This document shows, in pieces, positions 4,673 to 57,600 of a stretch of 64,000 nucleotides of DNA (its first letter is position 1; each line of letters starts with the position of its first letter). Location of the stretch: the NCBI GenBank assembly GCA_003344405.1, contig NOWV01000115.1:1-64000 (forward strand), given 5' to 3'. Made by a program: the position numbers and the translations under genes. The DNA is from Trichoplax sp. H2. Taxonomy: Eukaryota. A model generated the notes under the pieces. That model did no database searches. It saw only the letters and a program-made list of their open reading frames with translations, and was not told where the DNA came from.

Positions 4673-5385
4673 TTTCAAGCAAGAACTATTCCAGTAATTT
4701 TACGTCAGGATTGATATTAGTTTCAAATAAATATCTTTTACCTGCAACGAAGTTTGTTATTCTATTGCATGGAAAAAATGATCCAATTTCAATTACTACT
4801 TCTTTTAGACTTACAGTGCATATTTTTACGGCAGTAATACATGTGATAAGTATAAAAGTTTCATAATTGAACTGATCATATCAACTTTTTTGGAATAAAG
4901 CAGAGAATAATTTCCTTATTTGCAACCCAAAGCATCGAAAATATAGCAAGACGAATGTCACGGTACGAACTACCGTGAAGAAATAGCTATCTAAATTTGG
5001 TTAATATAGTATAGTGATATTATATTACAACTAGTTACTTACAATAGGAATTACTCTAATTATAAATGTGTTACAGTAAATNNNNNNNNNNNNNNNNNNN
5101 NTTTCAAGCAAGAACTATTCCAGTAATTTTACGTCAGGATTGATATTAGTTTCAAATAAATATCTTTTACCTGCAACGTAGTTTGTTATTCTATTGCATG
5201 GAAAAAATGATCCAATTTCAATTACTACTTCTTTTAGACTTACAGTACATACTTTTACGGTAGTAATACATGTGATAAGTATAAAAGTAACATAATTGAA
5301 CTGATCATATCAACTTTTTTGGAATAAAGCAGAGAATAATTTCCTTATTTGTAACCCAAAGCATCGAAAATATAGCAAGACGAAT
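4673..5385 (+). repeat. ~284-bp near-identical direct duplication (4673-4956 and 5102-5385) flanking the gap; probably an uncollapsed haplotype overlap
   Basis: Both copies run tttcaagcaagaactattcc...gcaagacgaat with about 7 substitutions. The second copy starts exactly at the gap edge. Confidence 0.9.
5082..5101. other. Assembly gap (20 N)
   Basis: Run of N in the sequence. Confidence 1.
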
Positions 5386-22100: not shown

Positions 22101-24705
22101 GTTACTAGTACATAAGGATAATTCAATTCCTTAATCTATTACTTTACTATTGGAGAGGTTAGAAATGATGAAGTTTATCGTAACTGTGGCATCGATTATA
22201 ACTCACTTTCGGTATATTTGAAAAATTATCCGATGAAATCTAGGTACTTTAATATATTATTTTTTTTCAAGTAATGCAATATTAATATAGCATAGGTATT
22301 TATTTTACGTAATGGTACCGATTTCCTTATCTTTATACTACTACTTCTGCTTATTTCTTAGAAATCTCAATAGTGCAGTATATATTGGCATCAAAATAAT
22401 CTTCATCATCATATACTACTACCATACTAGGTATGGTCTGCTTGTCACGTAGTGCAAAATACCCGTAGTATTTATGCCTAGGGTAAATAATACTTTCTAC
22501 AAAGAGACATTTGGCCAAGAGATTCTAATGTACGCAATCTAGCTAGAACTCTATGTTGAGGAATTTTACGGGTTTCCATGGGTTCTACCAAAATCTATTA
22601 CTATCATTACATCTAATGCTACATTAAAATGTAACGCATGATACTATTCTGTACACTATAACATCGCGATTCCTTATTATATAGCTCAGAGACCTATTCA
22701 TGAAAGACTTCAATGCAACTTTTTAAAGACTATAAAATTCCCCTATTTGCATTCCAAAAGCTGTGTTTTAAATGGAGATATTTAGTGATACTGATCATTA
22801 AAAAGTAAATAAAATGAAGGTATTACTTATGCTGTATATACAAAGAGTCACTTGCTTGCTACTGATAAATCAATAAGCAAATTAAAAGCGAAATAGTTTC
22901 TCTGCGTCCATAATTATTTAATAGTGATATGCTAGTATACCTATGTAACGAATAGCCTTACTTAATGCTAGTTATGATTACTATAAGTTATCAGATTAAT
23001 TCTATACTGAACTTCGTTGATAAACTGCGAAACGTTGTAATGATTTCGTTTTGTTATTGATTAATTTCTAATGTTATATAAGTACTGTAGATTCGCTATC
23101 CCTCTCGAATGAATCGTAAATTCTAATATCTGTGACTTATTGTACTACTATTATTACTCAGTTTAAAATAACAATAAAGGCTGTTATTTGAAACATTATT
23201 AAGAATGAAAACTTCGTTACACCCTATTATACATACAGATTTAGTACTAGCATCTGACGGCAACTCTGATTCCACTGTGATCACATAATATCTAAAAGTG
23301 ATCGTAAAAGATCCGTAATAGTATTACGGTCCATCATTACCGTAAATAAAATATATTTATTCATATTTTTATCTAAAGTAGAGTTGTGATATGTTAAATC
23401 TTAATGGATTTCCATTAGCGACTCTGACGATTTAAATCATTTAATTAGAGCAGAATGTTTAATAGAGATTGTCACACTTGTTACTGTGAGTTGTTAAGTA
23501 ACAAGTCCAGTTGATTTGTTAATTGGAGTAAGAGTAGTAAGCTTTCAATATTAATTAGCAAATATCTATTCTATACTAATTTTCATAAATGCATTGTATA
23601 CAAAATCAAATATATCGTAAATAGGAAGATGTTATGGCTATGACTGCATTTTAGTGAAATGATATCTTTAAGTAGCATTAATCTAAATTTTAAACGTTTC
23701 AATGTCATCGCAGAGCGAAGCATAGTAGCTTAGCCGATATAGATCATTTTATTTATCGGTATACAAAATAAAAATACTATTAAAACAACTATTAAAATTA
23801 ACAGTATTAGCAATACAAGCGACAGATATCAAATATAATGATAATCTCGATATGTAGTGATTGAAACTTTACATGGAAATATGTTTTTTAATAAACCCCA
23901 GAATAGATGCAGGTGTATGCGGTTATGATGTCATTAAATACAATCCAAATAGATCAATATGCGATAATTTCGAAACCAAAAATATGAATTAGTATGATCA
24001 TCATATGAATCAAAGTCAGTATAAATTTATGTGTATAAAGTTTATTAACTAGTGAGATATATATGAAATTACTAGATGATAAGATACAATTTCAAATTTC
24101 TTTCAGTTTCGTTCTCAGCAAAGGATTTGCCTTCGTCACTATTTAACTTTAATCTTGATTTTGGGATATGACAGAGTGTAAAATTCTTTACTCTTTTCAT
24201 ATTGAGGGGTGTCGACATCTTTGAGTAGTACGACAGATTTTGATAGCTTTACACGCTTGTGTAATCTTTTAAACCTTGGGCGTTGCACAAGAAATCGGCT
24301 ATGATATTGACTGAGTACGTTTGTCTAAGATTGTAAAGACAAAATTTCATCAATGTAATGTCTTTTATTCGATAATTCAATCCATAATATGGGCTAATTT
24401 ATAATGTAATTACTATTTTCACTGAAATATGAATCTATTGAAGAGATGATCGCTATCCTTGCTTAATAATCCTAAATTTAGTTAGATACAAACTACATTG
24501 TTTAGCTTAATTTGTACATCAACCTACATCGCTTCTTCTTTATATCACTATTTTTCTCTTGCGTTTTTGGCGAATTGCTCGATAAGGATGGGATATTATC
24601 TTCATAGGTTAAAAATATGATATACTTCATGAGTAATATCGAGCAATCTAATCATGATTTTACTCTATAAATCACATTGAAAATAGTAATTGTTTCAATC
24701 AAGCT

Positions 24706-26250
24706 TTACTTACTTAATGATACTGACGGAAACAATTTTGGTTTGCGGCTTGATTTGCTATCGCTTCGAGGTGGCAATATATTAGCTTTATTGAAAATGC
24801 TAGAATGTCGACGATTACTTGTTTCGCCAGAGACGATTCCTAATTGATGACGGATTTTGGAAATGTTTTCACGGGTAACCAAAAGTGACGAATGACAGTC
24901 TCCTAAAATATCACGCTTAATTTCCGCGGCTTTCTCGCACATTTCCAATGCATCTTTCAACCTGCCTTGCATATAGTAAATAGATCCAATGCAATGATAT
25001 GAAACCGCTACTTCGAGAGCATGTTGGCCCAATAATTTTATTCTAATATCTAAAGCCGATTGATGAGATGATAAAGCAATGTCACAGTTATTTTGTTTCA
25101 AGTAAACATTTCCAATTTCGTGATAGCTGTCAGCAACTTGTAAATTCTTTTCACCTAATAGGTTTATACGCGTATTTAATGATTTATCAAACATCTCTAT
25201 TGCACTTTCATAATTTCGTAAAGAGTAATAAATTTTGCCAATTTCATGGCATGAATGAGCAACATCTAAGCTGTTCTTGCCCAATAAATCGATTCTGATC
25301 TTTAATGACTTCCTATGCATTAACAGTGCATCCTTATATTTACGCTGGCAATGAAGCACATTGCCAGTTTCAAAATAGGCTTGTGCTACTTCTAAATTAT
25401 CCTTGCCTTGGATTTGCTGGGCGAGATTAAGTGATTTCTGATGCATGGTTAAAGCGTTGTCAAAATTTTCTTGTTTTAAATAAACGTTTCCTATACAATG
25501 ATAGGAATCAGCAACAGGTAAATTGCTTGTGCCTAAAATTTCAACTTTAATATTCAATGATTTATGATACATGGCAAGTGCATTGTCATAGCGTTGCTGA
25601 GAGTAGAAAATATTGCCTATGTTATGATAGGATGCAGCAACGTATAAGTTGCTGTTACCTAGTACTTCTAACCGTATACTTAAAGCTTCTTGAAAAAGCG
25701 ATAAAGAAGTCTGAAAATCATCTTGTAAGTGATAAATTTCACCAATGTTTTCATAGCAATCAGCTACTTCTAAATTATTTTCTCCTAACATTTCCAGCTT
25801 CAGTTCTAATGATCTTTTGTAATCTTTCAATGCTTTAGTATACATGGCCGTCATTTTCTTCATTTTGCCTCGACAATCGTAACATTTTGCTAATCGCACT
25901 TTATCACTTAGTTTACGAGCTAATTTTTCAGCTTGATTACAAAATTCCGCCGCTTGTGCATGACTATGTTGTTCACAATATGAGATTGAAATATCGAGAT
26001 AGATATCACATTGTGCTTCGTCTGCTTCAATGGTAATCTGATAGGAACCAACTATGACATCAAGTGCTTCTGTATAAGTTGATCTTGCTTGCTCGTAATA
26101 GCCTTGTTGAAATTGGCGTCGACCAGCTAGGCGTAACGATTCCACTTTAGTAATAACTTTGCTACTATTAGCAACAGGATCGACGGTGGCTATCTTAGTT
26201 TGACTGTTAGAAAGAGATGGTTTAAGATATTGACTATACTCGCCTCCCAT
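24706..26250 (-). CDS. Intronless TPR protein, 514 aa, with ~8 42-aa repeats; tandem paralog of 16973-19138
   Basis: Same repeat consensus. Shared N-terminal block: QCDIYLDISISYCEQ...KLSDKVRLAKCYDCRG vs QCDIGLQIASTYHEQ...KLDDRVRTANCFDAKG. Confidence 0.93.
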   Translation of the reverse strand: MGGEYSQYLKPSLSNSQTKIATVDPVANSSKVITKVESLRLAGRRQFQQGYYEQARSTYTEALDVIVGSYQITIEADEAQCDIYLDISISYCEQHSHAQAAEFCNQAEKLARKLSDKVRLAKCYDCRGKMKKMTAMYTKALKDYKRSLELKLEMLGENNLEVADCYENIGEIYHLQDDFQTSLSLFQEALSIRLEVLGNSNLYVAASYHNIGNIFYSQQRYDNALAMYHKSLNIKVEILGTSNLPVADSYHCIGNVYLKQENFDNALTMHQKSLNLAQQIQGKDNLEVAQAYFETGNVLHCQRKYKDALLMHRKSLKIRIDLLGKNSLDVAHSCHEIGKIYYSLRNYESAIEMFDKSLNTRINLLGEKNLQVADSYHEIGNVYLKQNNCDIALSSHQSALDIRIKLLGQHALEVAVSYHCIGSIYYMQGRLKDALEMCEKAAEIKRDILGDCHSSLLVTRENISKIRHQLGIVSGETSNRRHSSIFNKANILPPRSDSKSSRKPKLFPSVSLSK

Positions 26251-29200
26251 AGTAATAGATTAAAGAGTAATAGTGATTTAATCAAGGATAAATTTAGTAA
26301 TGACTCAGCGATATACTCTCTCGTCAATTTCCTTGGAAAAGTGTCGTTCAATGTAAGTTACCGCTATAGCTATATAATATTGCAAGCGGCTTTATTACTA
26401 CTACTCATATTGATTAGATAAATAACGTTACTAAGAAAATTTGTTAGTTATCCTTCTGGAAAAGAGGTCACGGGTTATTTAGCCTATTTACTCTGTTGAT
26501 TGAGAAGCAAACTCTTTTTGTCATTACTCTTACTGAGACAGCAACAATAATTGGATGCCGCAGGTGTTACCGACGACCATTGTTCCACCGGGAATAGGAC
26601 ATAATATTAATGAAAAGGAACTATAGTTAGTTTATCGTCATTCAATAGGGTCTCTAACGTATCGAGAATGATTTATATGGCAAAATCGCTTATTTTGATA
26701 TTCAACAAGGTTATAGTGATAGACTAAGTTCGCAGTGATGGATAGGTTGAATTTTCGGCAACATATCGTTCTTTAATCATCACTTGGACCATGTTTGTTG
26801 TTGGTCTATTTCACGACAAAGTGATGATAGTAAAATACATGACCTATGGGTCTATGAGAATTCTTATTTACTTTAAGAACACGATTTAAACAACGGTATG
26901 CTTAATATAAGTTACAATGTCATGTTGTGTACTTTTTATTTCAAGTAATGACTTTTAAAAAATTCTTATTTACTCAAAGTGCATAAAAAATAATCCAATA
27001 ATAACTGCATCGTTACGGTTAGCTGGTAATAAGGCGCCAAAAAGCATCTAGATTGAATGCTATTTCTTGATTTATAACATTATCTTCAGGTGTTCATTTA
27101 ATAGTATACATTAAAATTAGACTAATTACATTGTTTGATCTAATTTTCGTACCAGAAATAAGAAATAGATTAATTCATTGATCAAATGATATAGATTTTA
27201 TTATCTATTAAGTTAGGTTACAATGAGTCAGTTAGTTAGAAGATACATCTCAAAGCCTACTTCTACTCTTTATCATAGTCGAAAAGTGCAAAGTATCTTT
27301 AGTTTTAGATTAATGGATAATGATTTTCACTGCAGTAAAAAATAAGAAGTACCATAGGACACGAAAGTGGTCTCATGACTGCGTTAAAATTTTAAAAGTT
27401 TGCATACCAAGTACTCATTATCGATCATTAAGCATCGCTATAGTTAGAACTCTATATTTTTGAGCTTAGAAGGAAGAGCTTGCTGTAGGTAAGACTGCAT
27501 AGTTAGGATAGTTTTTTCGGCAATGACAGCGAAATCAAGTGATGTCAAAGCAGACATAACGCACCTTATCGTCCATTTTCATATAATTAATATATAAATA
27601 AGAACAACTTGCGATAAATCAACTTAAAGTTAATCGGAGAAACATTTGCCTTTTAAGAGCTACAGTATCGAATCCTTCCCAACTAATATTAGTCATCAAT
27701 CATTGACAGCCATTGGTCTACTCTTGGCTTGGAATATAATATAAATAGTTCATACTAAAGCGGTCAATACGGACAACTGCTATGATCATATGAAAGCAAT
27801 GCTCTTACCTAGCGGTTGATAAATCTTCAGTTTTATTGTTCTTCAATGGTATGTCTTAATTATAATTTGTAGGTATGCCATTTCTGCTGTATCTCTGTAT
27901 TGTTTGGCATATTATGGAGGATAAATAATAGCTTTAGTAATGGATTCTCCTTTAAATTGTATTTATGAATAATTCATTATTTTATACCCTCAATTGTGTT
28001 TTAGGAATAACTTTTAGAATCTTAATTGCTCAATGGTGGACAACCATTAATGCAATCTTGTTATGACTTTTAATTCGGTCCTAACATCCTGCTACCTATT
28101 GAACTGTTCTATAAGATTTGATACATCTGCTAATAGAAAAGTTGATGACGATTCCATGGAGCCAATTTGAAGCGATGACGTAATTTCTCTATCCTTAATT
28201 GATAATTATAATATACTGCATAATACACACGGAAGTGGGATTTTATGTTTTGGTCAGGATGTCTGAATTGGGTGCATTTCCCCAAAAAGGGTGTATTGAT
28301 AGTTTACGACAATATGAATGAGAGAATACGACCTTACCACGCTTAATGACATGTTTACCATTAATATTGCTAGTCTGATGGAAATTAGGACTATTGAAGT
28401 ATGAAGAGTCACTGGTAATAGTAGAATTTAAAATGCTCTAGTTTACTTCTGTATTGTTAAAATCTGTCTCACTAAATAATTATATACATAAATAAATACG
28501 AATTTAGATCGATGACTGAAGATAATACCTAGTTCAAACTACCACGAAACGGAATATCGTGCTTTGCATAAATGGTCATGTATCATGCTAATAACTGTGC
28601 TACATAAACCCTATAAGCAGACTAGGCACACTTAAAATCTACTGTACTGTAGGCGGTTTAGGAAATCCTTCAATTTAGTACACGGTAACGTAGTACTGTA
28701 TATACATCATTAATTGCTCATGGGCCCTATGCCTACACCATCATCATCATGGTCCGTCCCTGTTAATAAAGATAATCTATTAGAGACAACTTGCCAACAT
28801 GAGTTACTGGTACTTATCAAAATTCTGATGCATACAGAATTAATAATGATAACTATTTGCTCTATTCATCACAACAGCTAAAATTGATTAAAAAAACCCG
28901 TCGACTTAGATTGCTCTCTCTATATTTTAATGCTAACTCGCATAATCGATATGTTTTGGTAAATTCTACAACATTGATCATAGTCCTTAACGAAAATGAT
29001 TTAAATCAATATTCTATACTGTTATCCACTCAAATTTTCAGCGGCAAACTAGTTCTATGAAGTTGAGGGTCAGGAATTGTGATCGAGAGTATCGCGACAG
29101 GTGAGTATTGCGGCATTTTGTTTTAAGATTGGCCTCTGTGTATTGTATACAGATACGTTCAGTTAAAATAACATTACTGGTATATCATGAGAAGGGGCAA

Positions 29201-30719
29201 AAAATACTCTGTCTACTAGTTGGTGCCGTACTTTCTCAAATTTACTTTATTTCCTTGAATTGCATGAGTAGTTGGCTAAAACTGAAGTCAAAAGATTAGA
29301 GTATGATATTTTATCTGTGGCATACTATGCATTGATCCATAATACGCGTATACGGTATACATGCTACGTTGAACACAACATTGTACAATAGCAATGCCAA
29401 TAAGGGTAATCAATGAGAATTCATTTAAAACACTTTTGGAGCAACTTAGTATCTGCGTTAATACTTGGATTCTATAACAAAGACTGCGCCAAAATAAAAA
29501 AATAAAAAATAAAGATGCATCTTTGTGCTTTAATCTTATTCGCTGTCTAAAATAACATAGAAACGAAACAACTAATGCTGATAAAACAACCACTCTAATT
29601 ATTGGTTGATTGTGTCTTTGTTATGCAACTCTGTCCTGAGCAAATATCCTTGTAGTGATATGAATCTACTTCATCATTTTTGTTTTATTTACCGTCATTT
29701 TTAAATGTTCTATGCGATATTTATAGAATTAATCGACAGTATGCTTTATTAAGCGAATTGATTATCATCTTAACATCAGTGAGTCATCACTGATGTATCA
29801 AGAGAATCATTCAAGGTCTATGTACTGTTGTACATACGAATACTTCACTGATTGTTCTTCTCGTGTATCTTCTATCTACTGTATGTCAAGAATGGCTACA
29901 AAAATAAGTACTACGACGTCGCTACCAAAAGTACAGTCAGGGACTTTTAAGACGACTTGTCAAAGACTGTATTCGTCTTCAAAGTCCCTGGTATAGTCAA
30001 GTTGGAGAACAGATCAATTCTAGTGCTTTAGTAGCTGAATCTATTCAGTTGGATAGATGGAAAAGCGAATGCAGTCAGCTATGATAGTGCATTACTGCAT
30101 TGTCAGGTGATGTTACTTTCTATAGCATGGAATCACTTCCGTCAGATTGCCAATTCTACGTCCCGGATGTTATTGCACGGATCACTATGACGTTCAATTG
30201 AAAATAGTCCAATTATTGTAATAGAACTGAATGTTCTATCTTTCAAAGGCCATAAACTCAACTATTCTGAGAATCTTTACGGATAAAAGCCAATACTAAT
30301 GAATCCAAAATCAATCATGGGTATTTAAAATTGCAGAAAATTTCAAGTCCTCGCTGTATTGCGCCGCAAGAGTTGTGTTGATCAACAGCAATCATAGAGT
30401 ATCGATTATAATTATAATTTATTCTCGATCGCTGAATATTGAATATGGGCAAACGATCTCGCTAGGCAGTAGGCATGCAAGATCGGCTAGCAGCAATCTA
30501 GCAAACTATTGAAGAGAAGCTAATCGATTGTAGGCATTTCTCTATCCTGTAACAATCGTTTACACTCCTTGATAACTATTACTAGACGGTATGCAATCCA
30601 TTGGTCTATGTCAATGAGAAGAGTAAACGATGTTGTCGCCATCTTTGTTGTCGATGATTGCCCACTCATCAGTATCAGTATACGAAGGCGGAGGCATTGC
30701 GTGCGTCGCGTTGTACTCT

Positions 30720-31330
30720 ATGAAGTACAGTAAAGTACCGTACAGTAAAACAACTGTCTACAGTATGTGTACTCTAGTCTAGTACAGTACTGTACTGTAG
30801 GAACGAGTTCGTCGTGACTAGGGACGATGACGAGTCGCTATTGGGTCCATTCACGGTCATGATACTGTACCGTACCGTGTCACACCGTACCGTTCCGTAC
30901 CGTACCGTGCATCTCTCCGTGGCGAATAAACAAACACTCAATTCTTCGACAAGGGGCTTGGATTGTCTTGCACAAACTGGTACGGAGAAGTCAACCTTGA
31001 TACAATCGTTCTACGTCCTGCTACGTTGTTTATAAAGAGTGACGACCACATGAACGTCACCCATTCCCTACAGTACAGTACGCCGTCCCGTACAGTGTCT
31101 CGTCTACAGTACAATAGACTGTACACATGGCTTGATTTCTGTACTGTACACTACAGTCATTTTCCAAGTACATACGGATATTGCAGCGAGCGTACCATGG
31201 ATTTGTAAGAGAAATGCGCATTCTAGTCTATGGTCGTATAGTACAATCGCGTCAAAACAATTTACAGTACAATATAGTACTGTACAGTACATTCTAAGGT
31301 ACAGACGTACAGTACTGTACACTTCACTCT
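30720..31330. repeat. Island of TAC(A/T/C)GTA pentamer chains immediately upstream of the CUB-like gene (putative promoter region)
   Basis: About 19 TACNGTA occurrences by manual count in ~600 bp, e.g. agtacagtactgtactgtag and gatactgtaccgtaccgtg. The region is locally GC-richer and ends ~220 bp before the ATG at 31548. Confidence 0.85.
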
Positions 31331-31547
31331 ACCCCAAGTCACTCCGGTCACTAGGACTCACCTCCATATAGGGGTGTACTACACTCCACGGCCACAGTCA
31401 ACATAACATCAGCACGTCAAGCGGCTAACGTGTATTCCTAGGCAAAGATTAGCGAAAAAATCCAAAGCAATCCCAACCAGCAAACTCATTGAATTTAGGC
31501 TAAATTGATTGAATTTTCACAAACGGCTAAGGCATTTCCTAGTCAAT

Positions 31548-34500
31548 ATGGAGTTATTTCTAAGGATTTGCCTATTGCTTGTACTGGGCGTTGCTGGAAT
31601 ATCTTGTAAGTAATATTCATTTCGTAATTTGACATAGTCAAGTTAAAAAATTCATACAATCTTTTAAAATTCACTGCCAAGTTGGTAGCAGTGCAAGCGA
31701 ACCAAAACTCAAACCAATGCCATGTTCAATGGAATAGTTATTATTAAAATGCTATTGATTAATTGAATGTTTTTAATGTTCTATGCCCAAGAACCATTCT
31801 TATTTTACTACGTTTTGACTTGGATTGAGTAGAGAATAGTTGAAACGATAGGGTTCAGTGATGCTTGTAATCTTGTCAAGTTCAAGTGAAAGGGGTCGGG
31901 TCATCTCTCGCTAAACTCTAGTCAGTTTCAGCCTTGCCTCATCTTGACAGTTGTTGGCATGAAATTAAGTTAGATGGCGTAAAATTGCATCAACTAAATT
32001 TATATCATAACATAGCGATAAACAGCCATAGTTGTCGTTTAATGAAGAAATGTTCATTGATGGTAATTAGGCCGATAACCTTCTCAACTTGATCCAATTT
32101 CTTCCATGGTGGTTCGTATGAAAATGAATCGAAGCTTTAAATTGTGTTGACCAAATTCATATCATAACGTACCGATAAAACAGCCGATCGTTGTAAAAGA
32201 AATATTCATTGATGATAAGGGTCTCAACTGGGCCTCTAGCTTTCTCCACTGGATGTAATTTCTTTTCACCAACATTTTCTACAACTCATTACTGTACGTA
32301 CTCGATTCCTAATCTAACGCCAACATGATTTGGGAAATGACTACAACGACTACTGAATACTCTTAACATTGCAACTGTTAGGTCACGTTTAATTTCCAAA
32401 CTAATGTTAATGTTACTATTCAATCTGTGGTAAGTATGATAAGTCTGAATTTTTCATCCAACAGCGATTGGAAACGTAACGGTTGTTACTCCACTTTACA
32501 CTGTACAGCACACTGGTATACAGTACAGTACATGAACGCATAACGGTAGCGCATAGTATACTATGGAGTATGGCATAGAACCGGTGTTTAAGAGGCTAGC
32601 TAATGAACCAGCATAAAAAAATCAAAATTTATAATTAGATGTTATTTTTCACTCAAGCTCATTAGTGATTCGAAAATGCTTTAACGCTGTCAACGAAATT
32701 GACCATTAGCCTTATTCAGTTCACGATATACTGCACTTTACTGTTTTGGTAGTAGATTTTTAATACGGAAACGGATAGCGATAACAGATAGAATTGCTAA
32801 GGGTGACTAGGTACCCGTGCACCGTACACTTTATTAATAATGAAGCCATCCAAGGTTTACCGATCGACTGTAGCAAGGGTAGCTAATCAAGCTCCGTATG
32901 AGCGTCACTAGCGCTATTAAGTAGTCAAGCTAATATCGAGCAGACTATAAAGAAAAGCACAAATCTTGATTTCTCCTGTCTCTCGATTATATCTTGGATA
33001 AGTACTGTAGTAACTTGCCAAGTAATCCAGAATAGAATATGACTAATGATAATTGATTATAATTAATTATTCACTCTATTTTGAGATTAATCTCAAAAGT
33101 TTGTCTACAGTAATCAGGATCATATCTGTGTGCATAAGTTAGATAGTTTCTTTACTCTTTCATCATTGATATCGTATTAATTTTGATGAAATCTTACTAA
33201 CCAGAAATTATTAAGTATTTACATAGGCATTGATATTACTGCTATATGGAAATACGGTAGGCTAATTAAATTTGAGATTAATATTGTACCAGCATGCTGT
33301 GCCACTGGTGCCAAAAACCAAATATTTTTAAGAAAGGTACTATTTTAGAATGCTTGCAAATCTCCGATTCAAGTTTATACGGTACAGTATATCTCGTCGA
33401 TAATGATGTGTAACTATGAGTCGATAAGAGTATAGCACAGTATACGGTCAAGAAATTTCATTTATCATTATTCTGCCACTAGCGCTTTGCAATTAAAACA
33501 GTCTACATTAAAAAATTTTGCAACATGACTCTGTTCTTATCGACGATGAAAACCTCGTATATTCTACAGTGATGGCTTTATTCCGCGAGCGAATATTAAT
33601 TCGACAACTCAATAAGACTTGTTTGTGATTTGCATTAGCCTAATTGTCATAACTACATATTTCTAAAAATTTTACTTTGAATTTGAAGTAACTCAACTAA
33701 AAATTGCGTAAATCTATCGGATGGGTATGTTTAATATTTTATTTGGAAGGAACATGCTACACTTGAGTTCATGGTGGTTTATACATATCCATAAACATCG
33801 TTTACGCAAAGAATAGTAACTGAGTAACTCTCGTGATTATCTGCTAGTAGATATAATGGATTTAAGAGGTGATTTTTCAAAGGGATTGGTTGTAGTGTAA
33901 GTAGTATAGTACAGACGACTAAAGACATAAAGAGAGCTTTGCAATATTTTGACATTTCAGTACTATGATAATAGGGACTTATACGAGTATAAACGTACTA
34001 CTGAGAATCCTAAAATGTAAATTAGCTCACGCACAGTAATGGTAAAGAAACCTCTATAGATTCTCTAAATTTATGCTGAGAATGTAACGGTAGCCATGTT
34101 AATGTCTCAGCGGATGTGACAATATGCCCTATCTCTATGTACGATATTTTTCAATATTTTAACCATAAACTATGGATAGATTCCATCAAAAGCTTTGATA
34201 GTGACGGTAGTAATCGACCTTGTTAAATCTATATTGCTCAAATCATTCCTTAATGCTGACCTAGAGTCCTTTCTGTACTGTACTCTACAAGGGTATAGTA
34301 CATTCGGCAAGGCTACTAGAAAAAGACCAGTAGTAGTCTATGGAAAGCCGTTGCATACACTATGGCACAACCTCCATCGATAGCCATTACGCATCACTCA
34401 ATGATGAAGACAATTTAGGGAAAGAAATGTAATATAAGCTTACTACAAAAAACGCCATTAGTCCAATGTCATTTTAGTAATAATTGTTGGGGAATGTGGT

Positions 34501-37500
34501 TATATTTTTTTGTTATTTGGTACTGCTATTGATACAGCTTTCATGAAGAAAGTAATGACAAAAATAAAACTTTTATATTTGGATATTTTTTCAGCTTTAT
34601 ATTTCACCTTACTTACCATCGTGTTCTTTTCTATTTATAATTGTAGGTCAAATTGTGAACATTTCTCAAAGTAAGTCGACATATTCAGTAGTGGTATATT
34701 TATTTGCAATTGAAAGTTATTTCGACAATCAGCTAGAATAATTCACGTTTTACTGACATTGTCTAATGATGCTTTCGTAGCGTCAGAAATTGATCGGTCT
34801 TTTTATCCATTGTTAGCATATATGCTTTTCTTATAATCGATAACGTCTGTCGTCAGAATAAGTAACATTAATTATTCTATTTTAAATTTCAATTGTTCAA
34901 GTTTAATTGAAATTAGTACCGTATCAACTACAATAGCATAACTGTTAGTTTAGACTTGAGTAATGACTCTGTAGGCTTAACCTATACTATAATTAAATTG
35001 GTTGCCTTGTAGATCTAATCTAATAGTTTCTCGATACGTTTGTAATACTTATTTTTAATAATGTGTATTAGCATTTTATATGCCGATAATAATTTTAATA
35101 GTAGAAACATTAGAATATTTGTTAGTATTTAACGGCTTCATGATTTACTCTTATTGGGTTGATTGAGTAAAGGCAAGCTTGGAGAGACTGTAAACTGGTT
35201 ATTATTTAGTTAAAGTAATAACGTTATAGTTTATATAAATCACTGTCACAACCCATATACTGTGAAAGTATGGAAAGAATTTTCTGTAGTTGCCATCGGT
35301 GCCTTTCTAAATGACAATCCAGTATAATTCGAAAATTTTCCTATGATAAATAGCTCTTCTTGTAGCAGTATGACGTAGTTTAGTTAACTATTGGGCTGTT
35401 ATATATAAACTTTTACTCTTCTGCGATTTATTTTGTCGATTGCAATGGTTAGCGATAATAACTTCATCCAGATTTTCTGTTCGTTTACTTCTAAATTACT
35501 GTACTGTACTTCCGTTAAAGTCTAGTGGATTGAGATGCGAGAGATTAAGCGTAGTTATGTTAATTTAAGGTAACTTACGAGGAACGTGAGTACGCTTATG
35601 CGGACTTATCTAACCTTATGGATTATATCTGTGAAATATTAGTACTGTTTTCAACGTGGATACGCTAAATATGAAATAGTAAATGTAAATTTTTTAGTGA
35701 AGCATTTCACAACTCCTCATAAATTAGGTATTTTATTTAATTAAATTCTATCTCAATTCTGGTTGTACTTTACACTTTACACGATACATGCTGCCATAAC
35801 TTCAGGAAGAGATTGTCGATAATTTTAAATGATTGTTAAATGATGATGCAGATGTGGAGTGGAAAGGTCATGTTACTGTAGGAGTAATAATCGGATACAT
35901 TTACTAATTTGATCAATAGAATGCAATATGATTGGTCCGTTAACTAATTATTACCACAAAGATTCTGATTTGAGTGGAATGATCGAATTGGATGGCAGTC
36001 GTTTCGTTAAACCGTGGTGTTTCTGGTATTTTCAGACAGGGTAAGTAGTATTATCGATTTCTGGTAGCAAAAATTCAAGTAGCCAATTTGTCATGTAATT
36101 GAACGACGGTCTAATATCTGCATATATTGTTTTCAAAAAATAATGAGTATTTTCTGATTGTTCTTGCGCATTTATTAAACCAGGGAAAATATTATGCTGA
36201 CTTTTTACTTGCGTGATCTGAAGTTACCGTCCAATTCATCGTTGGTAATTGCATCGCAAACATCATCTAAATACGTTGTCTATAATAGCTTAAGTAACGG
36301 AATTTCAGAGCCCGTGGAGTCGTTATTTACCAACAAATTTTACGTTAAATTTTACAACAATAACACACATAAATATTACAGCCCTAAATTCAAGCTTCAT
36401 TTTGGTCCTTATTTCGGCAAGTTTCTTAATATTTCTAAATTTACTTACGCTATTAAATTAGGGTGATACTTTTTCAGATCTTATATTATACTATATTGAT
36501 AGAGTGCAAATCTATAGTAGATGTACTTTCGAACTGATGCCTATTACTATAACATTTTTAGATATATAAACTTTATTATTTTTCATTTTGGTGGTTGCTA
36601 TTATTTAATTGTAGGTGATACTTGCTCGCATGCAACAATATTCCAATATTCATCTGGGCGGATTAATAAGGGATATGGTTCTAATTTCCCTTACTGCGGC
36701 TGGACGATCAAGGTGCAGCCAAGTTACGGAATTACAGTCAAGTTTAATAAATCTTCAATGGTCGGCTTTCCTTCGAATACATTTGTTAAATTTGGTGTAA
36801 CCATCCCTATCGGTAAATTTGATCGCAATGGATTGAATTAATACCAAATATATAATTCATTTTATAGTTACATAAATTCTGTAAATGCGTATTTGTAAGG
36901 CTAATCTCATTCGATGCAAATTATGCAATTACGAGTTTAACATGATGGTGCAATCAATATTGCAAGTCTTTGTAGATACCGTAGCTTATAAAGGTTTAAG
37001 CTTAATTCTGAAAATTATTTCATGTTAAAGATGTTTAATTAGTGTGGCTATTATTCCTTACAGATCTAAAGAAGTACGTCAATTATTTTGGCTCTGGTGA
37101 TAGCATGCCTTATAACTTGAGTACGATATCTAACGTCGTTTGGATAGCTATTACGAAATCGAACGGCATGCCGCCGCTAAGGAATACTACTCTTGCCTTC
37201 AGCTGGTTTTCAAAGCCTAAAACAAGTAAGTCAATCATTATTGATGCAGTTGAATTCTATTGACGTATGTCTGCGTTATAAAGAAAATCTTATAGGAAGA
37301 TATATAATACCAGTTATGTTTGCTTAGGTTGGAGATTATAATGCATTTTACCTAGAGTATTATTTTTTCATTTCTGACAGATATGACAAGTTATCCATCG
37401 TATATGGATCATCATGCAAATTTTGGTAAGTTGCAAAGAAAATGCATAAAACTGATATAATTACATACTGATGTTGTTAATAAAATGTATCGGCGCAATG

Positions 37501-45400: not shown

Positions 45401-46787
45401 GGAGCGAAAATGAAAAGCTGATTTTTCAACGTCAAAAGGAATAAAATTCTCTTCAAACTGTCTCCGATATTGGAGATTTGGAATAATTCAATGCAATTTT
45501 TTGTTATGAGTATTCCATAAGATATTATTAAATCTATAAAGTATCTTCAAAAGACTGGAGGTTCTAACCTATTGGACCGACTGATTATAATTTAAATCGA
45601 TAAATCAGCTTTCGTAAATCAAACTGATTACTTGGATGCCTCGTGGAATTGACACTATCAATAACGATTTGGCAAACAAATTTTGTGGATATTTCTTGCA
45701 ACATACCAGTGCGTATAAATACCAAACTGTTAAAAGGATCAAACAAGGTTATAGGTCTTTATTTATTTATTAAGGATAGGTTGATTTCCATCCACTAACT
45801 TGTTAATCTCATCAATAGCAATCTCTAATCGTTGATTGGCTAAAAGTTATATCCTATAAAATCGATTTTAACAGCCAAATTAATTCAATAAAGAAGAAAT
45901 AGATTAATACTTATTCTTGGTCTATCCGTAAGAAGTGAATGGAAGCTGTGCTTACGTAGTGATTTCTAAATATTGAAGAGTTTATTTACAATTAATGCAA
46001 ACAGCCCCCAAATTTATTATTACTGGTTGTGTAATTGTAGAGGATTTAATGTTGTGAATAGAATTGAGAAAGTTGATTTCTGTTGAAGAATAAGTGATGT
46101 AAGATATTTTTTATTTTAACTTCACGTCCCTGTATTCTGTTTCTTGCTTAGTCTACATTACAATTTTGTTAGATAAAGTACAGTAATCGTTATTTATTAT
46201 TCTTCCATATCAACAGCGTTAGCAAATCCTCACTTTGGATCCTCAATTTTGCACCTTGCGAAATTGACTAAACTTTATCGGTCGTAATTATTATTAAACT
46301 ATAGGAAATTGCTCCTCAAGAATTTAGTTAATTTATTTATAATAAAATAGGAGTAGATAATAGAAGAGTTTTATCGTATTCATTTTTCGAATGCAAACCA
46401 TTTCTCTTTAATTAAGCAACTCTTCTATCTTGTTGAAATTATTTGATCATTGTCATCATTGATAAATTTATAATCTATTAACGACTAGATTTCGTTAGAA
46501 TTATTTCATTCTATCTATTGAATTTGTGTATCTGTTTAGCAATTACCAGGATTGATTTGCCAGCATCACATCAGATTACCGTTATGATATTGGTGTATGG
46601 TCCATGTTGTCAATTTTAAGCCATTTAGAGGATCATCGTTGCCAGCTCGATTATTGTAAAAGTTTATAATTGTATCATTTATCTTCTTTTGTGATTGTGA
46701 ATTCACTTAAACTACAACAGCAATATTGAGATTAATTTAGGGGGTATAGTATTATTGTCGTTATCAATATCAAAAACAAGATTGAAT

Positions 46788-50586: not shown

Positions 50587-52533
50587 TTACACAGGTCTCA
50601 TTCTAGCTGCTTGCTCTCTCACACGCTGTTCGTATAATACTCGGTTCTCCCTATGAAAAGATACAAATGTCATGATAATCGTAGGGTATCGTACATAGTA
50701 TGCAGTAATATCAACCAAAATTAGCTGTATTCTACTTCAAAATTGAGCAAGACTAAATTGTATATAAGTCCGGTATCAAGTAAGTGTCTTTCTATCACTA
50801 AACTATTTTCGATTTACTAACTTATAGGCTGTATAAGCTTCTACTTGTGCTGGATCATTTATGTTCGGTTCGTTGAGTAAGTCTTGAATTCCAAGTAAGA
50901 TCTTAAAGCAGTAAAATAGAACAAAACATGATATGCAATAGGGATATAAGAATGTAATTGTAAGAATGATTGCATTAAATTAAAGCATATTTGGGTTGTG
51001 TTGCATGACTCATTCTGGAAAATTGAATAACAAGTTACAGTAAAGGTATAAAAAGGGTAAATGACACAAATCAAAGACTATTTGGTTAGGATTGGCTCTT
51101 GTAATGGCTATTAGATACATCTTACTTGTTTGATTGTAACCGACGGACGCCAGTCCTTGTCTTCATCTAATAAAGATAGGCAGACTGTACCAGAAGGATA
51201 CACATTTGGATGAAATAAAGCCGGATCAAATTTACCTATACGTTTTAATTGCAAGAATCAGTAGCGATCTTTATGGCTCGAATCTAACTGCTATACTGTA
51301 GATGGATTGTAATGGTGACATTTTTTTTGAATAGACTTACATTTAGGTGGAGAAGATGGATAATCTTCTTTGAATATCATTTTTAATTTGTAGTAACCTC
51401 CGTCCCAAGCAGTCTATCAATAGATTTAATGGTAACGTTTTAGATATTGCGTGATAGGTTAAAGCACTAGAGTATACAAATTAGTCATCAAAGAAGATTT
51501 ATTTGGATGAATCTACTATAGGTGAGGCAACATACCCCTTTCTTGCCAGGAATAACTGTGGGATTGATTCAAAGAGGCATTCATTATATATGGAAGAAAA
51601 TTAGTAAGAAATATACATTACAAGTTGATGTCATGACGATTATGCTAACAGGGTGTATGACATAGACATTCAGTTGATATCGCTTGGATTGCTACGGCCA
51701 CCTCATTATGCCAATTGGTGGCATTCTACCGAGGTGTTTGATAATTGAGTGCAATATTCAATTACTTGCGACAGACTCGCAAGAACATAAGCAGCCTTGC
51801 AGGCTTGAGCTATTTCTTACCGCATTCCCAATTCATTAAATCCAAGGCACCATCAGGACCCTTCATGGGTCGAGCAACAAATCCCTAAGATGTGATAAAA
51901 GAAGTGTAGGCATTACTTTCTATCCCTGGTATCCTATCGTTGTTTATTCATACGATCATTTGCATGTAACAAAGCAGATTTGATCTACCATTTAACTAGC
52001 TGGTTATTGCCATCATGATTATCTAGACCTAGTGTGTATCGTCCTATGATGGCGTTGATGATTGTAATTCATCAGCAGCAATTAGGTATACAGTACTGTA
52101 TTGATGTCGGTGGTCCATGCTATCGTATCCCCACATAAAGAGAAGCTGCTATTACTACATTGAGTCAATTTCTAAAGCATATCAAGACAAGAGTCTATTG
52201 GAGGATGATAGACTATCGGTCTATGCGGGTCGATTTATATCTGCTTGTCTACTACGAGTAGTCTAGGAATTCGTCGATCATAGATCTACTCGTCCGAAAG
52301 TACCAAATTAAGAGCTGCTAGCCGATGTCAAGACTACACCATTCAATATGAATTGTAGCCAATTCACTACAAGTACGATGGTAGTTCTGCACTCAAATGT
52401 AGAATACTGTCATTTCATCATGATAACAACAAAACGAGAAGGAATATTTATCCTTTCCATCACTTACAAATGGATGATCTTTACGCCATAATTTACGCTC
52501 TGTACTTAGTCTTCCAGTCGCAATACCAGACAT
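50587..52533 (-). CDS. UBE2I: SUMO-conjugating enzyme UBC9, 158 aa, 7 coding exons
   Basis: Minus-strand exons: 52533-52468 ([22 protein letters not shown]), 51884-51821 ([21 protein letters not shown]), 51555-51536 (VIPGKKG), 51413-51341 ([24 protein letters not shown]), 51235-51126 ([37 protein letters not shown], catalytic Cys), 50901-50822 ([26 protein letters not shown]), 50650-50587 ([21 protein letters not shown]). Total 477 nt. Confidence 0.97.
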
Positions 52534-54615
52534 GTTGGAGCGCTAAAGCAAGAGGATAATGACGTCAATCAGTGCTAAAATAATGGACAATTGCAAGAGA
52601 ACAACCAAGACAACTGGACAATACTGTTGATATCTTCTAATAGCTCTAATAAAGCATCCTTGGCGATAGTCTACTACAATCGAGCACCTAGAAGTGCAGA
52701 ATTTACCTCTTTTGCCTAAGTTGAAAAAGTGGCATCGAAAAAAAAGCTGGCAGATTGATGTGGTCCCAAACGGGTCCCAATAAGTTGCCCGCTGAGTACA
52801 GTGTACAGTACAGAACGCCTTACAGTATGTACTGTACTGTATCACAGGTCCCGTGACCAGAACGATGATCACATGACTCAGTGTGCAGTACTGAACACTT
52901 CTTGGTACGGTACTATGCACTGTACACTGTACTGTACACTGTACTGAGTAACAGTAGTCTACTGTATTTTTGCTCATATTGAAAGCTATAGAAAGCGCTA
53001 ACGCTATTACCGAGATGAGCCTTTACTATTGCACACTATTCACACGTTGATCTTATACTTGATGTTGAGGCATCGTCCATAGGCAGATCAATCCATGGAC
53101 CACTCAATCCCTATTTTTCATGATACTGCCCACACCAGGCAGAGCAGAGACGGCCAATAGGCCACCCTTCCACTGTAAACTACTTTATTTCATATTTCGC
53201 CCTACGAAACGCGATATAATATCACTTTTCAATCTACAAATTGCCCATCGCTGGCCAACACTCTACCGTTTTAATATGCCGTTGGAGGAAGTTGACGGTG
53301 TACAGTACACAGTCGAGCACAGTACTGTACAGTACTTACTTTGTACTGTACAACTGGACAATCACTCTTGGATGGACAGACATTTCCGACCTCATTGCGC
53401 CAAAATAGCATGTCAAACACTGGATTATGAAAGTACTTTAGTATGCAGATGGTCGATTTTGAATGGACTGATTTTTTCCAAATTAAGTAATATTACGCTC
53501 AATCTGATGATCTGTTTGTTTTACGGATTTACTAGCGTCTCTGTAGTTAGCTAATTATAGGATTGCTTGGACTGTTGAATTGCAAGCTTAGCAGAGCTTA
53601 ACAGCACTAGTTCTGTTCCGTCCTAGATCAGTATAGGTACTGTTTTGTACTGTACATAAGGGTGGTGAGAAAACAGAAGAAAGGTAGATCTTCACGTGTA
53701 AGCTAAGCTGCCGGGATCTCGCTTCGGTAGACTGAGAGCATACATAAAAACAGTCGCTATCATTACCGCTAACACTGTGACTAAGTTCTACTTGGAGACA
53801 ATTATATGAGATTGTCGACGCCATTAGAATTAGTGCCAGTGATTTAGTAAAGAGACGCGGAAGATCCATGCTAGGTAGCCATTTTAGCGATATTGATGGC
53901 CTCCTTGGTTAAGAAAAGTCCGTCTACCTGTCCAAGTCGCTACAGTATCTACTGTACAGTCCACTAAAATGTACAATACTGTACACTGTAGAGTCATGGA
54001 CTATTCAATAAGTCGTCTAATTTAGCAGCATTATTTTCGTCTCAGATATTTTATTTAAGGTATAAATGAAATTTATTGCTAGATATTGGTATAAGCTAGA
54101 GTATTCGCACATTCATTTTAGTGACATTTTTTTTCCAGTTCAAGTCAGTCTGTAGTCGAAATTAGAAGACGCTGTACACTCAGAGTACAGTACATACTGT
54201 ACGGACAGTACGGTAGAGTACTGTCGCCAAGTGGAACATGAATTGGTGTTTCGTATGAGTAACCGTGAGTGGAATGGAACCGTATAAAACCCATCGATCA
54301 TATGTCATCCATGGGTCACACGGTCAAGGCTCCCTCTCATCCCAGGGCATCGACTGGATCTTCTTTTGGTACTGTAGTCCTTGGTACAGTGTACAGTACA
54401 GAGTACTGTAATATGGCACTGTAGAGAGTTGGCTAAGTACTGTAATAGTTGGCCATGGATTGGAAATAGAGGTAGCCCCTTTTTGGGGTTTTACTACATG
54501 ACCAGTACAGCTTCAATGAAGCGTTTGAAGCACTAGAGTGCAATACTTGGCTGGGTGTTCTCCTCGGCCATAGCTCCTGGTTGACAGCTGCACCGTTGCC
54601 ATGAAAGCCTAGGAC
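52534..54615. promoter_or_regulatory. Divergent (head-to-head) promoter/5'UTR region shared by UBC9 and RINT1, containing several TAC(A/T/G)GTA clusters
   Basis: The start codons are ~2.1 kb apart on opposite strands. Motif clusters lie at ~52795-52970, 53299-53352, 53638-53656, 53941-53992, 54172-54225 and 54369-54443. Acceptor-like sites just before both ATGs suggest 5'UTR introns. Confidence 0.7.
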
Positions 54616-57600
54616 ATGGAGGAGAATATTGCCAATCAATTCTTGGATCAACTCTTTTCCGATCATTTGCAGCAGTTTTTGAATGGTATCGATGCAACAC
54701 TAAAGGAAAAGAAACTTGAATTAGATGCTCTAAATACAAAGGTATCTTGATGTATTGGCTAGACATGAGCTATTGACAAATCATACTAGATTAGATGAAT
54801 GAGTAAGCCGAGAGTCAAAGCTTTGCCAGTTGCACATAGGAAGGCAAGCTAGCGACGTGTAGATCCGTCAAAATGTGCCAACTTACCAAGCGATCGAGGC
54901 AAAGAAAAGTGCCTCCAGAGATAGAGTATTTCTTTTGATTAGCTAAGCTTAATGGACCAATGGAAGCAGAAAGGAGTAGTAGATCATGGGTGCAAGCTTT
55001 GATCCTCTTCTCCATCTTTGATTGAAGTTACAGTAATCGATGATAGAACAAGGCCCATCGTCGATGGAATAGCGTAGATACCAATAAATTGGCGTAAGGT
55101 TTTATAATCTTTTCCATTTTGTCTTTTATCAATGATAGAACAATGCCATGATCGATGGCAGCGATGAAAATTTAGTCCATGCTATGCAAGCCTGTGATAA
55201 CGCAATCATGCAAGGTCATGATGCTCGAGATGATTATCAACAATTATTACGTAATTGGCACCAATTACAACAACATCATCAACATCATCTACAACAAATT
55301 GAAAACTTAATGAAACAAGAAGAAACTGCCAAGCTTAAAGCATGCTATCTTACCTGGATACAACGTGTAGAAGGTATAAGGTGAGTGGATGGACGATAGC
55401 AATCGCGTTACGGTGTAATAGCTTGACAGTAAAATCTCCTTGTCATACTCGAATACATACTTATTGATGCCATCTAGTAAGGAAATGATCAATGGCCTTC
55501 AAGTAGCGTCGTTACCTGATGTTCTAGATGCCTTTACGTCGTTGTTGACCATCAATCAACAATTACAATCAACTTCATGCCAACATTTACTAAAATATGT
55601 TCATCAAACAATTTCCTACTGGCATAAAATATTAAGAAAGATTCTGCAAAGGTAACCAATTGCTGTTGATCGGTAACAGTATCTGTTATAATACTTAATC
55701 CATACCTTATTATAGACTCTTGCAATCAAATAATTGCCAATAAAGACATCAGTCAGGATTTTATCAAATACGAGAGCGTATTGATGCTGACATTGATCAT
55801 GCTCTTTCAATGGATTCATTTTCAATTATAGAGAGTTTGATGATGTATTAACAAAGATTCAGTGGCCCTTTCTTTCCGTTCAAATGACTTCACCTTCGCT
55901 TGATAATCAGATCGATTGCAAGCAACAATTGGAAAAGTTATTCTCCTATTTGCTAAGACTTCAGTTACCGTATCTATTCCTATTATTAATTATCCTCTAT
56001 CTTAGTTGTAATCATATTGTTGATATAGATGTCCACTTGTACCAATAATTAATTATTTCGTAATGGAATAGAATCCTAGCGATAAGCGTATTAAAGTATT
56101 CTTCACTCTTTCATGTTATACTAAAAAGAGTAGCGGCTATAATCCAATTTTTTGACAGATAGTGTTCCCTTCGCTTGACATATTACAATCCTTAACAATA
56201 TTTCCATGCAGTGAGGCGATGAGTGAAAATCAGTCCTCCTCATCTTTACAACCTTACAAACCGTTACTTGCCCCAATAGATTTACTTGTTAGGCCACTAA
56301 GGAAAAGATTTCGATTCCATTTCTATGGTAAAAAGCAAACGAACAGTATTGAAAAGGTAATAAATAGCCTTGTTTCTGCTGAATGGATTATACTGCTACA
56401 ACATTATACTGATTGATTCATGCATTGCGATATTTTTTACAGCCTGAATGGTATTTTACTCAAGTTTCGAATTGGATTCGCGATCATTCGCAATATTTAC
56501 AATACACTATTCAGCCCATTTTGAATCAAAATAATTTCGAAAATGTGGATGCTCGGGTATGTATTATATGGATATCGAAAAGTTGATCTATCCAATTTTA
56601 ATAACTATTATCTCCTTTTTTAGATCGAATTTATTCGAGGTCTAGTAGTCGTACTAGTCGAAAAAGTAACATCGGATATCCCTTTATTGTTATCGGATGA
56701 CTACTGCTTCTCTCATATTATCGACGAACTATTGCTTTTTGAAAATGAACTACACAATAAATATTATTATCCTATTGAATTGCCTTCTTGCATCGCCGCT
56801 TTAGAAGATGATTCTGTCATCGATAAATGGATTTCATTAGAATGGAAAAGTAATAACATAAAGTATTAAGTCTTATTTATCACCATCATCATTAATAAAT
56901 AAATACCGTAAGATTCTAACTTTTTGGCACGATTATTTTCATTCAAGATGGGAAGGAGAAAATCAATGAAATTATCTCTTCAGCAACGGCTTGGAGACCA
57001 AAATATAAAGATGTCGCTCAGGATTGTGATACCTCTCTAAAATTTCCTGAAGCAACAGAAAATATCTTAACTATGCTAATTTTAATGAAAGGTAAGCGTG
57101 ATATTCTTATCGCAAGATTTGGCTGTAAATATTGTATTAAAGTTTTAGTAGAAACTGCCGGTTAGGTTAGCAGTACTAAGTGTCACGTATTCTTACCCTC
57201 GATTCATAGAACGATATAGCAAATTGTCTAGCACGTCTTATATGATGCAATTCGTTCGGATGCAACTAAGCCTTCTTGACGAATTATATGCCAGATTTGT
57301 TGAATTAACCAAAAATGGCCCAAAACAATTACTAGATCAGGACTACAGTTACATTTTAAATGGAGTCAATCATTTAATTGGAGTGTTAAAAAAATGGAGT
57401 GATCAATGGGTATAACGTATTCCATGTAAAATAATTTCTTTTAATTTATAAAAGCATCCTCTGCTACTCTTTTACTTCTATTGATGATAGACTATTTATC
57501 TTCAGTTTTTCCTGGATTTATACGCGAAAGAGGTGAAGCTCAGGAAAGGTGATGTGAAGTCGTTAGAAGATGACAGTAATGAATCAGAAGTGCTGAAAGA

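Follow-up and report, generated by a model that had tools for sequence, protein, structure and literature searches.

The stretch of DNA analysed here, referred to as the window, comprises 64,000 nucleotides of the placozoan Trichoplax sp. H2 (contig NOWV01000115.1, positions 1 to 64,000) and contains two islands in which the 7-mer TACNGTA is strongly concentrated. Island 1 (30720-31330) lies upstream of the first coding exon of a plus-strand gene, and island 2 (52780-54460) separates a UBC9-like gene and a RINT1/TIP20-family gene arranged head to head. According to the reading favoured in this work, which we consider likely, both islands are arrays of a placozoan-specific DNA motif with a promoter and architectural role; they probably mark promoter regions and act there. 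A Pfam run on 255 of the 306 stop-to-stop open reading frames (ORFs) of at least 45 amino acids recovered a C-terminal piece of an ABCA protein, a 7tm_1 receptor (13080-14597), two minus-strand TPR_12 genes, UQ_con and RINT1_TIP1. The receptor ORF (13107-14597) shares 99% identity with Trichoplax adhaerens TRIADDRAFT_60881, the alignment covering 100% of its length. This match rules out a bdelloid rotifer origin, to which the AT-richness and the TPR_12 and GPCR genes might have pointed.

Island 1 holds 19 copies of TACNGTA between 30726 and 31319, the first starting at 30726 and the last at 31313, the number that a preliminary description of this DNA had counted in some 600 bp. The chance expectation, which had been put there at well under one, came out at about one, since 1000 dinucleotide-preserving shuffles of 30720-31330 gave a mean of 0.93 (standard deviation 0.97, maximum 5), so that the excess is approximately 20-fold. 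In the whole window 111 copies were found against 18.0 +/- 4.1 in shuffles, none of 100 shuffles reaching this number, and TACAGTA/TACTGTA is the most over-represented 7-mer (88 against 14.6). Island 2, with 22 copies against 1.09 expected from shuffles, and a weaker cluster of 8 in the first intron of the gene downstream of island 1 are additional to the single island previously described. The two islands hold 41 of the 111 motifs in 2.3 kb, and nowhere in the window is the GC content higher than in these two stretches (0.40-0.45, against about 0.30).

The 7-mer is only part of the repeated word. The true repeat unit is the self-complementary GTAC-N-GTAC, with N mostly A or T, placed in a 5-bp register with occasional 7-bp steps. 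In fact, the palindromic 9-mer GTACWGTAC (GTACAGTAC/GTACTGTAC) occurs 22 times in the window against 0.37 expected, about 60-fold, and the 10-mers GTACWGTACA are enriched about 100-fold. The base preceding a chain is G in 33 of 95 cases and the base following it is C in 28 of 95, the background beside TA being about 17% for each. Moreover, the distances between GTAC cores peak at 5 (26 pairs), 10 and 15 bp, as well as at 7, 12 and 17 bp, while six control 4-bp palindromes gave no comparable spacing peaks in the window, and Tandem Repeats Finder (TRF) reported imperfect arrays of period 5, 7 and 12, those of period 5 at 68-75% matches. Isolated GTAC sites, which belong to no TACNGTA, are likewise in excess within the islands (20 against 8.6 expected), and slightly depleted elsewhere (136 against 181).

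The central letter behaves differently from the core. Among the 111 motifs it is A in 45, T in 43, C in 14 and G in 9, hence A/T in 88 and C/G in 23; inside the islands A/T centres account for 36 of 41, against 58% expected, whereas outside them the centre is hardly constrained. Chains of period 5 bp in which A and T centres are mixed, as the preliminary description had it, are readily seen, for instance in TACAGTACTGTACTGTA. In 16 adjacent unit pairs the spacer letters show no correlation (identical in 7, mixed A/T in 6, with C/G in 3), which indicates that the GTAC cores are kept while the spacer floats. The mixed orientation of neighbouring units, put forward in the same description as something that simple slippage does not produce, does exist, but the argument is weaker than it looks: as the GTAC core is self-complementary, the orientation of a unit depends on its single spacer base. 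At 30863-30908 the register takes a C/G-spacer form (TRF period 5, 9.2 copies, 73% matches), with CCGTACCGT at 30870, 30885, 30895 and 30900. Island 1 consists of four short arrays and island 2 of seven, each of about 20-80 bp and separated by unique, GC-richer DNA. These 11 arrays are packed into 2.3 kb, and the other 61.7 kb contain short arrays only. The features are collected in Table 1.

Table 1. Motif arrays, gene starts and associated elements of the window
Feature	Position	Strand	Remarks
Island 1, array 1	30725..30799		7 TACNGTA, including the 3-unit chain TACAGTACTGTACTGTA at 30783-30799
Island 1, array 2	30863..30908		TACTGTA, then (CCGTA)n, which is (ACGGT)n on the other strand; C/G-spacer form of the 5-bp register
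TATA-like box TATAAAG	31031..31037	+	sole TATAWAD match in 30500-31600
Island 1, array 3	31069..31149		4 TACNGTA and half-motifs; starts about 30 bp downstream of TATAAAG
Island 1, array 4	31263..31320		promoter-proximal; 5 TACNGTA, 232-282 bp upstream of the ATG
First coding exon, gene downstream of island 1	31548..31605	+	signal-peptide-like; intron 31606-34646, GT..AG; RNA joints in X16 and X18
Motif cluster of intron 1	32290..33389		8 TACNGTA; two strain-polymorphic 5-bp indels, at 32519 and 33002
First coding exon, UBC9-like gene	52467..52533	-	ATG at 52533; exon end approximate; UQ_con matches on downstream exons
Island 2, array 1	52796..52841		4 TACNGTA; contains the 19-mer GTACAGTGTACAGTACAGA, with an identical copy at 54384-54402
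Island 2, array 2	52905..52966		3 TACNGTA, 7- and 12-bp steps; inverted partner of array 1
Island 2, array 3	53300..53351		4 TACNGTA
Island 2, small array	53637..53655		1 TACNGTA and half-motifs
Island 2, array 4	53941..53984		3 TACNGTA
Island 2, array 5	54185..54224		3 TACNGTA; A/T and G spacers mixed (GTACAGTAC...GTACGG...GTACGGTA)
Island 2, array 6	54369..54410		3 TACNGTA, a fourth at 54438; 175-243 bp upstream of the RINT1 ATG
First coding exon, RINT1/TIP20-family gene	54616..54741	+	ATG at 54616; RINT1_TIP1 matches on 7 downstream exons

The position of the islands with respect to the genes is that of housekeeping promoters, island 2 lying between the UBC9-like and RINT1 starts and island 1 upstream of a first exon with RNA support. 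RNA contigs of two runs splice 31605 to 34647 (GT..AG) and splice out six further introns, so that 31548-31605 can be taken as the real first coding exon. Island 1 ends about 230 bp upstream of its ATG at 31548, which agrees with the placement originally given, right upstream of the first exon of a CUB-like gene; the name itself is less well backed, the Pfam CUB match on exon 36614-36811 (E = 0.1, 13.4 bits) remaining below the 21.4-bit cut-off. Within 500 bp upstream of the ATG, 9 motifs were counted for this CUB-like gene, 7 for the UBC9-like gene and 7 for RINT1, against 2 and 0 for the receptors and 1 and 0 for the TPR genes. Thus, three of seven gene starts carry 7-9 motifs, while the two starts resembling G-protein-coupled receptors and the two TPR genes have no island. 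One of the TPR genes is expressed (RNA contig 24300-26633) and yet has no motif within 1 kb, which suggests that the arrays mark a subset of promoters rather than being a general core-promoter element. In 5 of 7 genes motifs stand about 175-305 bp from the ATG, but a preference for this spacing was discarded as not significant for the four non-island genes (rough p of about 0.1).

The RNA runs consist of contigs, which cannot place transcription starts, and regions bare of RNA cover carry no weight in this analysis; from the TATAAAG box, a start near 31061-31066 is predicted for the gene downstream of island 1. TATA-like boxes are found inside both islands, TATAAAG in the 31031-31066 region and TATAAAA at 54283-54315, and an array (CTACAGTACAGTAC) starts some 30 bp downstream of the former, its CAGT being similar to the core of an initiator. 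These boxes, together with the initiator-like CAGT, suggest that the arrays may overlap start sites and be transcribed. At other loci, chains do occur within RNA contigs. At 29780-30475, immediately upstream of island 1, low-depth RNA contigs (3.8-6.5) with no recognisable ORF or family could represent a divergent transcript of the island. Furthermore, unspliced RNA contigs of both runs cross the 3-kb first intron (31580-34670) at a depth of 16-25, against 33-41 for the spliced form, reflecting either intron retention or a separate transcript; this intron holds 8 motifs and both 5-bp polymorphisms.

The architecture described is not restricted to this locus. The depth of DNA contigs in the bin 30670-31336 rises to 357 and 353 in two other runs, against about 33 elsewhere, loose contig ends accumulate at the borders of the chains, their flanks having no common consensus (agreement 0.44-0.63), and foreign contigs link two chains over 5-38 unique, often GC-rich letters. 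High depth, unlike flanks and foreign joins together point to the same architecture at many loci, and not to one repeat family.

A motif of this kind has already been described for Trichoplax. Kim et al. (Nature 2025, PMC12221973) found a motif that is enriched both at the loop anchors and at the promoters of housekeeping 'GP1' genes of T. adhaerens, and is present in orthologous promoters of four placozoans, including Trichoplax sp. H2, Hoilungia and Cladtertia. The same text gives 2,978 GP1 genes, with peaks of accessible chromatin (ATAC) and of the histone mark H3K4me3 and with promoter-promoter loops forming hubs, enriched for trafficking, translation and mRNA processing, and a median loop size of 21-28 kb for the four species jointly, T. 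adhaerens included; in addition, Mutator elements with motif-containing terminal inverted repeats (TIRs) are stated to be often annotated at these sites. A second study (PMC12817080, Nucleic Acids Research 2026), based on the sequence-to-Micro-C model Chimaera, relates repeating ACGG and ACAGT to insulation at gene starts in T. adhaerens, in-silico mutagenesis confirming an effect on the predicted maps. The ACGG repeat is assigned there to a transposable element, and the strong effect reported for the M1BP motif in this species is explained by a 4-nucleotide pattern shared with the insulation-associated sequence. Given these two reports, the novelty of the feature itself is low.

In the window, both published words are present. 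ACAGT-type chains occur throughout, and CCGTACCGT (which is ACGGTACGG on the other strand) fills 30870-30908, while a plain ACGGACGG repeat is absent from the window. As the ACAGT and ACGG forms occur together in the arrays 30863-30908 and 54185-54224, they can be read as spacer variants of one GTAC-N register. The two islands are about 22 kb apart, in keeping with the published loop size (21-28 kb, PMC12221973), and GP1 comprises genes of the type of UBC9 and RINT1; from these coincidences, both islands are putative loop anchors. The earlier suggestion that such islands mark promoters is therefore borne out by their upstream placement and by the published work on T. adhaerens, and the alternative offered with it, a homotypic cluster of binding sites, gives the best fit to the evidence and the literature, binding itself being predicted.

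A protein is predicted to bind the arrays, and a palindromic site makes a dimeric reader likely. A sequence-specific protein would read the overlapping GTAC-N-GTAC sites; the arrays would offer it many sites at once, keeping the promoter open and tethering promoters together, and would evolve by gaining and losing units of 5 bp. No CTCF-type factor has been assigned to the promoter-promoter loops of placozoans, which number in the thousands, and the published work leaves open both the reader protein and whether a transposon brought the motif. In this context, the recognition of the ACAGT and ACGG words as one self-complementary register speaks for a reader that is a dimer and supplies a defined probe, and the 5-bp changes between strains offer a way to polarise array growth. 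These additions refine the picture of the field without changing it.

Several points weigh against the promoter and architectural reading. We know of no protein that binds these arrays. Outside the islands, 70 motifs, about 3-4 times the chance number, are not explained by a promoter role, and the comparison of gene starts rests on seven of them. The number of units in the arrays varies from strain to strain, just as expected of neutral simple sequence, and a search of metagenome contigs with a RINT1 exon for orthologous promoters gave 246 pattern matches and no relatives. Finally, the letters of the published loop-anchor logo, which stand only in figures, would be GTACNGTAC going by the wording of PMC12817080.

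Among the other explanations, the one that survives best concerns origin and is compatible with a present function: following Kim et al. (PMC12221973), the arrays would be, or descend from, TIRs of Mutator-type DNA transposons that inserted in active promoters, the motif being co-opted later. We regard it as rather unlikely for the arrays of the window, despite a Mutator family common to the four placozoans of that study and the assignment of the ACGG repeat to a transposable element in PMC12817080. All strong inverted repeats of the window consist of paired arrays in island 2, and a structure-based transposon finder would read these as TIRs. The first, 52792-52813/52927-52948, has stems of 22 nt, 95% complementary and 113 nt apart (157 bp in total), and folds as single-stranded DNA with z = -2.9, one of 200 shuffles folding as well. 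The second, 52906-52944/54384-54410, is the sole strong long-range inverted repeat of the window (26-27 nt, 89-92% complementary), and the 19-mer GTACAGTGTACAGTACAGA recurs in the gene-proximal array of both divergent genes (52796 and 54384). Nevertheless, MULE, Transposase_mut and other transposase families gave no match among the 255 of 306 ORFs searched, the ORFs between the arms belong to no family, and the 9 bases flanking both inverted pairs contain no target-site duplication, so that neither the 9-11-bp duplication nor the MULE transposase of Mutator-like elements is found within the 64-kb window. The lack of consensus in the chain flanks at other loci speaks against one mobile family, and island 1 has arrays but no convincing inverted pair. 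Arrays that are self-complementary necessarily yield 'TIRs', so that annotation could have produced the Mutator calls as an artefact, and inverted arrays devoid of transposon features at these loci mean that the published transposon origin deserves to be re-checked.

The 157-bp inverted repeat 52792-52948 could extrude a cruciform, or be called a miniature inverted-repeat transposable element (MITE) by structure-based tools. A hairpin or cruciform as a general feature of the islands was rejected, as island 1 folds with z = -0.7. Likewise, no non-coding RNA gene was detected in the islands, either by Rfam or as tRNA.

The arrays could also be a neutral (GTACN)n pentanucleotide microsatellite, produced by replication slippage favoured in open promoter DNA and devoid of function. 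The period-5 arrays reported by TRF would be expected from it, as would the two 5-bp indels, which are both at motif sites among the 12 indels listed of 42, with no outgroup. At 32519, TACAGTACAGTA stands against one unit fewer (two units against one), and at 33002 the window has GTACTGTAGTA where all four runs have GTAGTA, that is, TACTGTA against TA, with no tandem copy there. Also, pure (TACAG)n arrays of up to 41 units exist in many unrelated metagenome contigs. However, slippage would copy the unit together with its spacer, and both the uncorrelated neighbouring spacers (like in only 7 of 16) and the 68-75% matches depart from the like head-to-tail neighbours of a pentanucleotide microsatellite. 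Moreover, neutral decay should strike four core letters more than one spacer, and yet the cores are kept; the crowding of 11 arrays in 2.3 kb, against short ones only in the remaining 61.7 kb, is equally unfavourable, and so are the published in-silico mutagenesis (PMC12817080) and the conservation in promoters of four species (PMC12221973). As a control, a pattern scan of metagenomes for GTACWGTACWGTACWGTA yielded 115 loci, whose only relation to the window is the motif; 48 of the 53 loci chosen for a chain of at least three units had no extra motifs in their flanks at p < 0.01, which indicates that the island architecture is not a general property of this microsatellite. On balance, a neutral origin of this kind is improbable. 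Four unrelated eukaryote-like metagenome contigs (L025, L074, L014 and L033; GC 0.47-0.51) contain 15, 10, 8 and 5 dispersed TACNGTA, outside the selected chain and with all four centre letters, against 0.9-1.6 expected, so that an island-like distribution of the 7-mer is not unique to placozoans.

The origin proposed in the preliminary description, namely cycles in which CAG-ended Tc1/mariner elements insert at TA and are excised again, with CAGTA or CTGTA added every time, is very improbable, as it leaves unexplained the extended GTAC context, the C/G centres and the 7-bp steps, and no such element lies in the 64 kb. The likeness on which it was founded is genuine, TACAGTA/TACTGTA being the canonical Sleeping Beauty footprint TA-C(A/T)G-TA (PMC6943129), and the predominance of A/T centres (88 of 111 overall, 36 of 41 in the islands against 58% expected), randomly mixed as mismatch repair of a footprint would leave them, agrees with it. 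In rough arithmetic, 19 events over about 45 TAs would give some 6 chained neighbours, and 7 were observed. The 33002 polymorphism, TA against TA-CTG-TA without a tandem copy, is likewise what this origin predicts, but a GTA...GTA deletion explains it equally; in fact, both indels, being unpolarised, fit footprint gain, unit slippage or GTA...GTA microhomology deletion alike. Against it, the word exceeds TA...TA, with G at -1 and C at +1 at twice the background and GTACWGTAC enriched 60-fold, isolated GTAC and half-motifs are in excess in the islands (20 against 8.6), 23 of the 111 centres are C/G, including a 9-unit CCGTA array, and steps of 7 and 12 bp are present. The AT-rich, motif-poor spacers are richer in TA than the islands, whose GC content is higher, no transposase family was found in the 255 of 306 ORFs, and, motif arrays excepted, the 64 kb contain no TA-CAG...CTG-TA pair in which 17 or more of 24 bases match. 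Such an origin would require thousands of full insertion and excision cycles, with no copy remaining. A Tc1- or MITE-like element with CAG ends was rejected for the window, where only the motif arrays pair up, and no precedent for footprint islands was found among the literature matches listed. It is just as hard to credit a composite history in which TA-anchored 5-bp gains, from cycles of CAG-ended Tc1/mariner elements in open promoter chromatin, wrote the arrays in place, to be co-opted later as a loop-anchor code; it is kept alive by the TA/TACTGTA polymorphism at 33002 and the random A/T centres. If it were true that Tc1/mariner cycles wrote the arrays, the published 'Mutator TIR' link would be a by-product of their self-complementarity.

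Other observations concern the rest of the window. At 39500-42400, broken TPR_12-like ORFs in several frames have a pseudogene-like appearance, and the raised DNA-contig depth (45-55 against about 33), together with many contig joints, suggests a repeated, probably decaying member of the TPR family. An intronless receptor-like ORF of 388 amino acids with seven hydrophobic stretches (46701-47864) matches no Pfam family even at E = 5, and an assembly gap of 20 N occupies 5082-5101.

Palindromic or repeated motifs of housekeeping promoters are known elsewhere, as in the case of DRE/DREF in Drosophila, NRF1 in vertebrates and the (GA)n arrays of the GAGA factor. The arrays of Trichoplax share with these, and with BEAF-32 and M1BP, the use of short palindromic or repeated words, the association with broadly expressed, often head-to-head promoters and the link with boundaries, but the word is another one and its overlapping 5-bp chaining sets the Trichoplax arrays apart. 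With the (TACAG)n microsatellites of the metagenomes (loci L005, L012 and L038), they have in common the 5-bp period and the polymorphism in unit number, although those are long, pure and solitary, and the arrays of the window are short, spacer-mixed and clustered at promoters. Literature searches with the motif letters and Trichoplax returned only primer lists, and with the motif letters generally, nothing on promoters. A methylation motif for N4-methylcytosine or N6-methyladenine (4mC/6mA; PMC8885841) was discarded, as GTAC does not appear in that text and the species is wrong. The Sleeping Beauty or Tc1/mariner footprint (PMC6943129) presents the identical 7-mer, the random A/T centre and the 5-bp increments, but not the GTAC context, the C/G centres or the 7-bp steps, and the arrays lie in TA-poorer, GC-richer DNA with no element. 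The likeness to the repeats of PMC12817080, where M1BP and BEAF-32 are also named, is closer: (ACAGT)n is, letter for letter, chained TACAGTA, and (ACGGT)n is found at 30863-30908, although two motifs are distinguished there, one of them derived from a transposable element, while here they appear as two spacer variants of one GTAC-N register within the same arrays. As for the GP1 motif of Kim et al. (PMC12221973), it is put down to Mutator TIRs, whereas the arrays of the window have no transposase, target duplication or shared flanks; nevertheless, both belong to the same genus and agree in their housekeeping promoters (UBC9-like and RINT1 in the window) and their TIR-like inverted repeats, and the published loop size of 21-28 kb matches the 22 kb between the two islands.

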